The position numbers and the translations under genes are program-made. The notes below the pieces were generated by a model, which saw nothing but the letters and a program-made list of their open reading frames with translations, searched no databases and was not told where the DNA came from. This document shows, piece by piece, positions 10,469 through 10,911 of a stretch of 10,911 bases of DNA (the stretch's first letter is position 1; the number at the start of each line of letters is the position of its first letter). Origin of the DNA: a virus (taxonomy: Duplodnaviria; Heunggongvirae; Uroviricota; Caudoviricetes); IMG/VR virus record IMGVR_UViG_2541047120_000012; one strand, written 5' to 3'.

Positions 10469-10902
10469 AATAAAATACATTGTCATACGAGTCACCTGTA
10501 CTCCCTGTTGATGCCAGCAGTTTTGCTTCTTTTAGTCGCTCCGTATAGGCCAGTGATACATACTGAGAACCTTTATCACTGTGATGGACTGTGCCGGACG
10601 GCCGACGGGCCCACAACGCCTGCTCCAGTGCATCCAGCACGAATGTCGTTTCCATAGACGATGAGACCTCGCCACCCCACGATGTATCCGGCAAACACAT
10701 CAATGATGAACGCCACATAAACGAAGCCCTGCCATGTGCTTACCCAGGTAAAATCAGCCACCCACAGCTGGTCAGGACGTTCTGCCACGAACTGACGGTT
10801 TACGCGGTCGCCTGCGGAAACGGCTTTCCGGCTGACGGTAGTACGGACCTTTTTACCCCGGAGAACACCGGCAAGTCCCATAACTGCCATGAGGCGCGCC
10901 AC
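10469..10902 (-). pseudogene. IS3-family transposase OrfB, frameshifted and C-terminally truncated
   Basis: Reading frame switches around 10660-10700; homology to the left copy ends right after DSYDN at about 10469, where the sequence diverges into AT-rich DNA. Confidence 0.75.
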
Positions 10903-10911
10903 TGTACATCT
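10469..10911 (-). mobile_element. IS3-family element fragment, inverted relative to the left copy; internal frameshift and 3' truncation at about 10469; continues beyond the window
   Basis: Minus-strand ORFs 10576..10902 ([34 protein letters not shown]) and 10467..10718 ([62 protein letters not shown]) are consecutive OrfB parts in different frames. Nucleotides 10469-10655 are near-identical in reverse complement to 1-~170. Confidence 0.85.

Follow-up and report, generated by a model that had tools for sequence, protein, structure and literature searches.

The window, the whole 10,911-bp stretch of DNA that was analysed, ends on both sides in fragments of the insertion sequence IS629. It is best explained, with a probability of approximately 85%, as a whole draft contig of prophage Sp13 that carries the traces of two unrelated IS629 events, an old deletion scar on the right and a young insertion into the integrase gene on the left, with no inversion of the DNA between them. 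The inverted arrangement of the two IS629 copies is coincidental. The right scar is the main feature of the window and has been catalogued since 2011, and the remainder is routine IS629 activity in O157.

The window is one complete draft contig of an E. coli strain of the O157:H7 type. The 204-residue product of the open reading frame that runs on from the integrase gene into the IS is an exact match to ERE20004.1 of E. coli T1282_01 and is found in 31 contigs, the longest of which has a length of 10,911 bp. Positions 423–10911 match 363 complete E. coli genomes with 99.9% identity (the best matches listed are mostly O157:H7), and in these 363 genomes the 10-kb block is found at the yecA locus only. 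Judged from these matches, the window corresponds to the half of the defective P2-like prophage Sp13/CP-933T that holds the early genes, beside yecA. In the PGAP annotation of strain TW14359, yecA is followed by the integrase, a repressor-like gene, early genes, gpA (940 aa), ParM, ParR, and a truncated IS3-family transposase, beyond which there are a tail-fiber-assembly gene and the genes for the tail sheath, tube, and tape measure. The gene order from int to the P2-type tail genes at yecA is found in the PGAP annotations of both TW14359 and strain 1613, and the Pfam matches Phage_GPA and Int_N back the P2-like assignment of the window. The listed size of prophage Sp13 in strain Sakai is 21,120 bp.

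Other assemblies of the same lineage contain a 10,311-bp contig that is identical to positions 296–10606 of the window and has 127 bp of IS on each side, and further contigs of 10,057 bp that correspond to the unique interval 423–10479. Each end of the window is located approximately 420–430 bp inside an IS629 element because the assembler was unable to cross a multi-copy repeat. A contig that starts and ends in inverted IS fragments is expected from a repeat-broken draft assembly. The first-pass annotation described IS fragments bracketing the whole segment; these are present, but since the window is a whole draft contig, the bracketing is largely a product of short-read/454 assembly breaking at repeats. 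The window starts with a T where each of the IS629 copies compared has C, a mismatch consistent with unreliable contig ends.

Table 1. Coordinates of the IS629 fragments and adjoining prophage features in the window.
Feature	Position	Strand	Details
IS629, 3' 422 bp (IS positions 889–1310), common O157:H7 subtype	1..422	+	OrfB C-terminus 3–380, stop 378–380; Pfam rve, rve_2, rve_3
Left arm of inverted repeat	2..169	+	IS629 positions 890–1057
Chimeric run-on ORF, 204 aa	383–997	-	Integrase and IS sequence
Sp13 P2-like tyrosine integrase, 5' 575 nt (codons 1–191 and 2 nt)	423..997	-	Identical to TW14359 gene start
parR-like partition gene (Plasmid_stab_B), last intact phage gene before the scar	10133..10447	+	Pfam PF10784, E = 7.7e-29
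Phage DNA after parR, 32–33 bp, to deletion junction	10448..10480	+	Compared with intact relative (L004) and full-length IS (L005)
Right arm of inverted repeat	10480..10647	-	IS629 positions 1057–890 read on the + strand
Truncated IS629, second subtype, IS positions 1057 down to 627	10480..10911	-	Contig ends here
Extra C (CC for C), shifts OrfB frame	10667..10668	-	GGCGAGGTC versus GGCGAGTC on the coding strand
Nine substitutions compared with the orthologous fragment	10684, 10685, 10692, 10720, 10741, 10744, 10745, 10747, 10885	-	Alignment

The ends of the window had been reported as near-identical reverse complements, and they indeed form an inverted repeat of 168 nt, in which 154 of 168 positions (92%) are identical and the longest exact run is 58 nt. 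The repeat is far beyond chance. There are no other long repeats in the window, where the remaining inverted pairs have lengths of at most 39 nt at 70–90% identity. The peptide differences quoted earlier between the two arms were reproduced in the translations. The right arm had been placed at 10469 to about 10655; the inverted repeat is there, but the IS homology ends at position 10480, 32 bp after the parR stop at 10447, and position 10469 is the stop of a run-on ORF.

Both arms can be assigned to IS629 (1310 bp, IS3 family), and to two different subtypes of it. The assignment, and with it the naming of the elements called for by the first-pass annotation, comes from an alignment of full-length 1310-bp copies from several genomes with both ends of the window, in which the two copies were separated by alleles and pairwise identity. 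At each of the 14 positions where the arms differ, both carry an allele that also occurs in full-length copies of their own subtype, which rules out decay as the source of the divergence. Therefore, of the earlier description of two related but distinct or old IS copies in opposite orientation, the distinctness holds, since these are distinct IS629 subtypes, but the copies are not decayed. The IS629 subtypes compared here have pairwise identities of 95.2–97.1%, and the coexistence of O157:H7 IS629 subtypes that are 4–5% apart has been described previously (Rump 2011, BMC Microbiol 11:133).

Across positions 2–422 (421 bp), the left copy has 100% identity with full-length 1310-bp copies from O157:H7 chromosomes, compared to 94.8% identity with IS1203 of strain 1613 and 93.8% with the right-hand subtype. 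The right copy, as it stands in the window, is 97.9% identical to the full-length copy in 14EC017, and its orthologue in TW14359 is 99.2% identical to the same copy. Both window copies match the Pfam rve domain (DDE integrase core). The right terminal repeat of the left copy is intact and ends in ...CCCGGGGCGGTTCA at position 422 (also read as ...GGGGCGGTTCA), and its left repeat lies beyond the contig. The orthologue in TW14359 is annotated with open frames and a frameshift pseudoknot, as belongs to orfA and orfB joined by a programmed -1 frameshift. These properties agree with the isoforms IS629, IS1203, and IS3411 (IS3 family; O157:H7 subtypes I and III), which share the length of 1310 bp, TGAACCGCCCCGG... 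terminal repeats, orfA and orfB with a programmed frameshift, a DDE domain of the rve type, and 95–97% identity between subtypes. The name "IS1203" is used by PGAP for the strain 1613 copy only.

The right copy lacks IS positions 1058–1310 (253 bp), which include the inner terminal repeat and the C-terminus of OrfB, in agreement with the 3' loss noticed in the first-pass annotation. The break is located within DSYDN/AMAES, four residues ahead of the glutamate of AES, which we take to be the third catalytic residue, as in the IS3 family in general; the aspartate motifs ADFTY and HHSDKG are kept. The fragment, deprived of the inner terminal repeat and of the putative catalytic glutamate, is dead and unable to transpose. 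Because the right copy has lost one end, no target-site duplication can remain. The orthologous fragment in TW14359 has a length of 1057 bp, with an intact outer left terminal repeat, an open orfA, and an orfB that is open up to the break. Its outer end adjoins the tail-fiber-assembly gene G at approximately codon 16.

A full-length copy of the right-hand subtype is present in 14EC017, and pO157 carries a copy of it that is truncated at the 5' end and positioned beside espP and katP. On pO157 of strain 7636 (L006, 2790–3814, between espP and katP), this IS629 fragment is 99.4% identical to the subtype of the Sp13 scar and lacks the opposite end, namely the first approximately 280 bp including the left terminal repeat. 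The near-identical pO157 copy is probably the reason why assemblers stop at positions 10480–10606 of the window.

The right scar is already known and is fixed in typical O157:H7. It is listed as site IS.14 in Sp13, "truncated", at positions 2508887–2509943 of TW14359, with a length of 1057 bp and the flank ATCTGCTGGC (Rump 2011, BMC Microbiol 11:133, Table S2). The scar observed here in TW14359 is exactly IS.14, with the same locus, extent, and flank (L001, 19058–20114). IS.14 was PCR-positive in seven of eight strains of clonal complex A6, which is the derived, typical O157:H7 group of the stepwise-evolution model, and negative in all earlier lineages (Rump 2011). The junction between parR and the IS is identical in 264 complete genomes, all of which lack the left IS.

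The last intact phage gene before the scar is named "plasmid partitioning/stability family protein" by PGAP. At the joint, the phage sequence ...AAATACA(T) is followed by the IS sequence (T)TGTCATACG, and the T at position 10480 is shared, which amounts to 1 bp of microhomology. The breakpoint is at position 1057 of the 1310-bp IS, 253 bp inside the element. What is missing can be estimated from the intact P2-like prophage of CEA212U, located at pdxB, which is 98.3% identical to the window across gpA-ParM-ParR up to position 10480. In CEA212U, parR is followed by two cargo genes and by portal, terminase, scaffold, capsid, lysis, baseplate, and tail-fiber genes, and then by G, so that 15,993 bp separate the two breakpoints (L004, 20102–36094). 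The CEA212U prophage has another immunity region and is integrated elsewhere, and the identity of its G gene is no more than 76%; therefore, the deletion size of 15,993 bp is an estimate. Based on the P2 gene map, the predicted cos region should also be located within the deleted interval. The lack of late phage genes at the right junction, as reported in the first-pass annotation, corresponds to the replacement of these approximately 16 kb.

The right-hand structure most likely originated in two steps. First, an IS629 of one subtype would have inserted into gene G at approximately codon 16, oriented so that its 3' end faced the head genes. Subsequently, a deletion that ended 32 bp downstream of parR would have taken the last 253 bp of the IS together with approximately 16 kb of phage DNA, including the cargo genes, the predicted cos, and the portal, terminase, capsid, lysis, baseplate, and tail-fiber genes. 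A classical transposase deletion begins at an intact IS end. The breakpoint in Sp13 is internal, 253 bp from the terminus, and therefore does not correspond to a classical transposase-mediated adjacent deletion. The earlier proposal of an IS-mediated deletion on the right side is thus correct in that an IS copy is positioned at a 16-kb deletion, but not in the sense of a transposase-type event. Judged from this one junction, the joint is most likely an end-joining scar. The DNA may have undergone a double-strand break at the inner IS end or close to it, followed by resection both ways, for a short distance into the IS and for approximately 16 kb into the phage, and then by end joining with almost no homology, as for IEE-associated IS629 deletions in O157.

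The IS-excision enhancer IEE, carried by O157, has microhomology end-joining activity in vitro, and IEE-dependent deletions next to IS629 in O157 measure anything from a few nucleotides to more than 40 kb, their repair proceeding by microhomology end joining (PMC9943667). The Sp13 deletion is similar to the published IEE deletions (Kusumoto 2011; Calvo 2023) in that it is large, abuts an IS629 end, occurred in an O157 background, and involved minimal microhomology, and IEE may have taken part in it. However, the published IEE model excises the whole IS, whereas the Sp13 scar keeps 1057 bp and has lost 253 bp at one end; therefore, ordinary illegitimate recombination stays a serious rival, and a joint with 1 bp of microhomology would also be expected from random recombination of that kind. 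A deletion unrelated to IS activity, in which an ordinary illegitimate recombination or a replication slippage reached its endpoint in a resident IS by chance, would fit the position of the breakpoint away from the IS terminus, the single shared base pair, and the fact that no second IS was left. It is nevertheless rather unlikely, given that one endpoint is within 253 bp of an IS629 end, that IS629 sites are concentrated in prophages, and that deletions of up to more than 40 kb linked to IS629 and IEE have been documented in this host (PMC9943667).

The left copy cuts the integrase gene, as stated in the first-pass annotation: the IS ends at position 422 and the integrase begins at position 423. 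The interrupted integrase retains a Pfam match to Int_N only, its catalytic domain is missing, and the insertion inactivates the enzyme. The integrase gene of TW14359 is intact, with a length of 1002 nt, and the junction on the yecA side is intact in ordinary O157:H7. The left IS is therefore an event separate from, and much younger than, the right scar, and specific to one lineage. The left junction (422/423) is present in approximately 31–35 draft assemblies, and was found in none of 5,426 complete E. coli genomes and in no IMG/VR record. The contrast with the ancestral right junction, shared by 264 genomes, speaks against the common origin that had been suggested for the two junctions.

The left element is probably full length and looks fragmentary because the sequence starts inside the IS. 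The partner junction, which would join the 3' half of the integrase to the left end of IS629, was searched for as ORFs predicted for target duplications of 2–5 bp and contig-edge lengths of approximately 24–38 nt or 127 nt. Thirteen of the 15 predicted partner ORFs are not on record, and the 143-aa and 91-aa forms occur only in contigs with point or frameshift mutations of the integrase, without an IS. Such look-ups are weak evidence, since they detect exact matches only and gene calling at contig edges is unpredictable.

The Sp13 integrase has been disrupted independently by IS629-type elements at three sites: approximately codon 148, codon 191 (the window), and a point close to the 3' end (strain 1613; L002, 9420–10370). 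The first of these is represented in another lineage by an IS read-through ORF starting at approximately codon 148. The IS1203 near the 3' end in strain 1613 is a simple insertion with the 4-bp duplication GGAG. Additionally, contigs L012–L025 contain integrase frameshift and probable nonsense alleles.

An alternative to two independent events is that both copies are scars of IS-mediated deletion or inversion, the left one having removed attL and the 3' end of the integrase, with the 10-kb block perhaps inverted. The right copy does mark a 16-kb deletion, the failure to find the predicted ORFs joining the integrase 3' half to the IS629 left end (duplications of 2–5 bp) leaves room for a deletion on the left, and the 58-nt exact run between the arms would be enough for RecA. 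However, both arms are of pure subtype throughout the shared 168 bp, with no crossover, and the genes are in their usual order with respect to yecA and the tail genes, which excludes an inversion. The junction between parR and the IS is identical in the 264 genomes without the left IS, and the arms are not chimeric; therefore, the bracketed segment is in its ancestral orientation. The inversion that strain comparison was expected to reveal is contradicted by a junction and gene order that are the same in 264–363 genomes without the left IS. As for the left deletion, the negative look-ups have the weaknesses given above, and the IS629-type insertion in the same gene of strain 1613 is a simple one with its GGAG duplication. 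Common IS-mediated rearrangement is thus an unlikely explanation.

It is most improbable that the two inverted copies make up a composite transposon-like unit moving the P2 replication and partition module. The orientation is inverted, and each copy would have its outer left terminal repeat pointing away from the block, but in the right copy both the inner terminal repeat and the part of the catalytic domain with the putative glutamate are missing. Furthermore, the copies are of very different age, and the 10-kb block occurs at yecA only (363 genomes). The preferred reading remains that of an old scar and a recent insertion that are independent of each other.

The frameshift that the first-pass annotation reported in the right copy exists in the window as an extra C, but the same fragment in closed O157:H7 genomes contains no such frameshift. 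Neither TW14359 nor any of the eight other IS629 variants in the alignment has the extra C, and the published IS.14 copies in Sp13 (Sakai) and CP-933T (EDL933) differ from the window in lacking both the extra C and the nine substitutions found in its last 245 bp. The frameshift is therefore private to the window and was rejected as a feature of the conserved scar, the frames of which are open in TW14359. PGAP flags the TW14359 fragment as "frameshifted", which most likely reflects the programmed frameshift, because both frames are open.

There are 11 differences between the window and TW14359 in 10,489 bp, and ten of them are clustered at positions 10667–10885, within the last 245 bp. Eight of the nine substitutions are alleles of other IS629 variants, some of which are present in O157:H7 genomes, and the one at position 10692 restores the base common to every other copy compared. 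The variant sites alternate with sites that keep the resident alleles. No donor copy identical to positions 10640–10911 was found among complete genomes, in which the best match had 97.4% identity over 272 bp, and the best match to a 94-bp query covering positions 10672–10765 was 98.9% identical. A search of 153 billion gene positions found none of the three ORFs that contain the extra C.

A consensus or chimera artefact at the contig end, caused by reads from other IS629 copies, is somewhat more likely to be the source of these differences than multi-tract gene conversion. That the frameshift and the patch at 10667–10885 are real, the dead Sp13 fragment having been patch-converted by or recombined with a live IS629 of another subtype, is less likely than not. 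The eight substitutions are genuine IS629 alleles rather than random errors; IS629 copies that carry them are present in O26 and O121 strains as well as in the O157:H7 strains PV15-279 and 2017C-4109. A mosaic structure is visible when the IS629 variants are compared with one another, and in window coordinates the extra C comes shortly before the first variant site. On the other hand, a real patch needs at least three tracts (10684–85, 10720–47, and 10885) amid the unconverted segments 10693, 10767–10843, and 10894–10906, and the combination occurs in no known copy, the closest being the 97.4% match to 10640–10911. The changes are confined to the last 245 bp of a draft contig that ends in a repeat of roughly 20 copies, the indel is a change in homopolymer length, and the three resulting ORFs are not on record elsewhere, although at least 31 contigs share the left junction. 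If the fragment recombined with a live IS629, gene G may not be what follows the contig end. No biological reading should be given to the terminal few hundred bases of such contigs, frameshifts included, without the reads.

It is a very improbable combination that the dead IS629 was overwritten in short tracts by a live IS629 of another subtype, with the +1 frameshift shortly before the first variant site, and that the new integrase IS629 removed attL in the same lineage. An immobilized gpA-ParM-ParR module would then be positioned between outward-facing IS629 ends and could be moved or inverted as a unit. According to the favored reading of two unrelated events, the right scar explains why Sp13 is defective, with the head, lysis, and tail-fiber genes and the predicted cos missing. 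The left insertion disables an integrase that has no functional phage to move, and is a further lineage marker, comparable to those employed in IS629-based typing.

Further erosion is seen at the far end of Sp13: the late-control gene D is cut by an IS30 in TW14359 (L001, 27149–28397), and strain 1613 carries an additional IS1203 within the tape-measure gene (L002, 22716–26832).

The gpA-type replication endonuclease encoded at positions 6270–9092 (+ strand) has 940 residues and appears to be longer than gpA of P2, which has approximately 761. It is directly followed, at positions 9169–10447 (+ strand), by a pair of ParM (StbA_N/ParM_N) and ParR-like (Plasmid_stab_B) genes, where tin/old is located in P2. 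It is unusual for an integrating P2-like phage to have an actin-type plasmid segregation system; the ParM/ParR module is also present in the intact integrated relative (L004, 18790–20068). Two Rfam matches above the gathering score, isrK at 5341–5415 (63 bits) and C4 antisense RNA at 5451–5538 (78.5 bits), both on the + strand, are located in the gap just upstream of a gene for a 76-aa "derepression protein" (5595–5825), and an inverted repeat (5288–5308/5401–5421) overlaps the end of isrK. The isrK/C4 region resembles an antisense-RNA immunity module of the P1/P7 type within a P2-like prophage.
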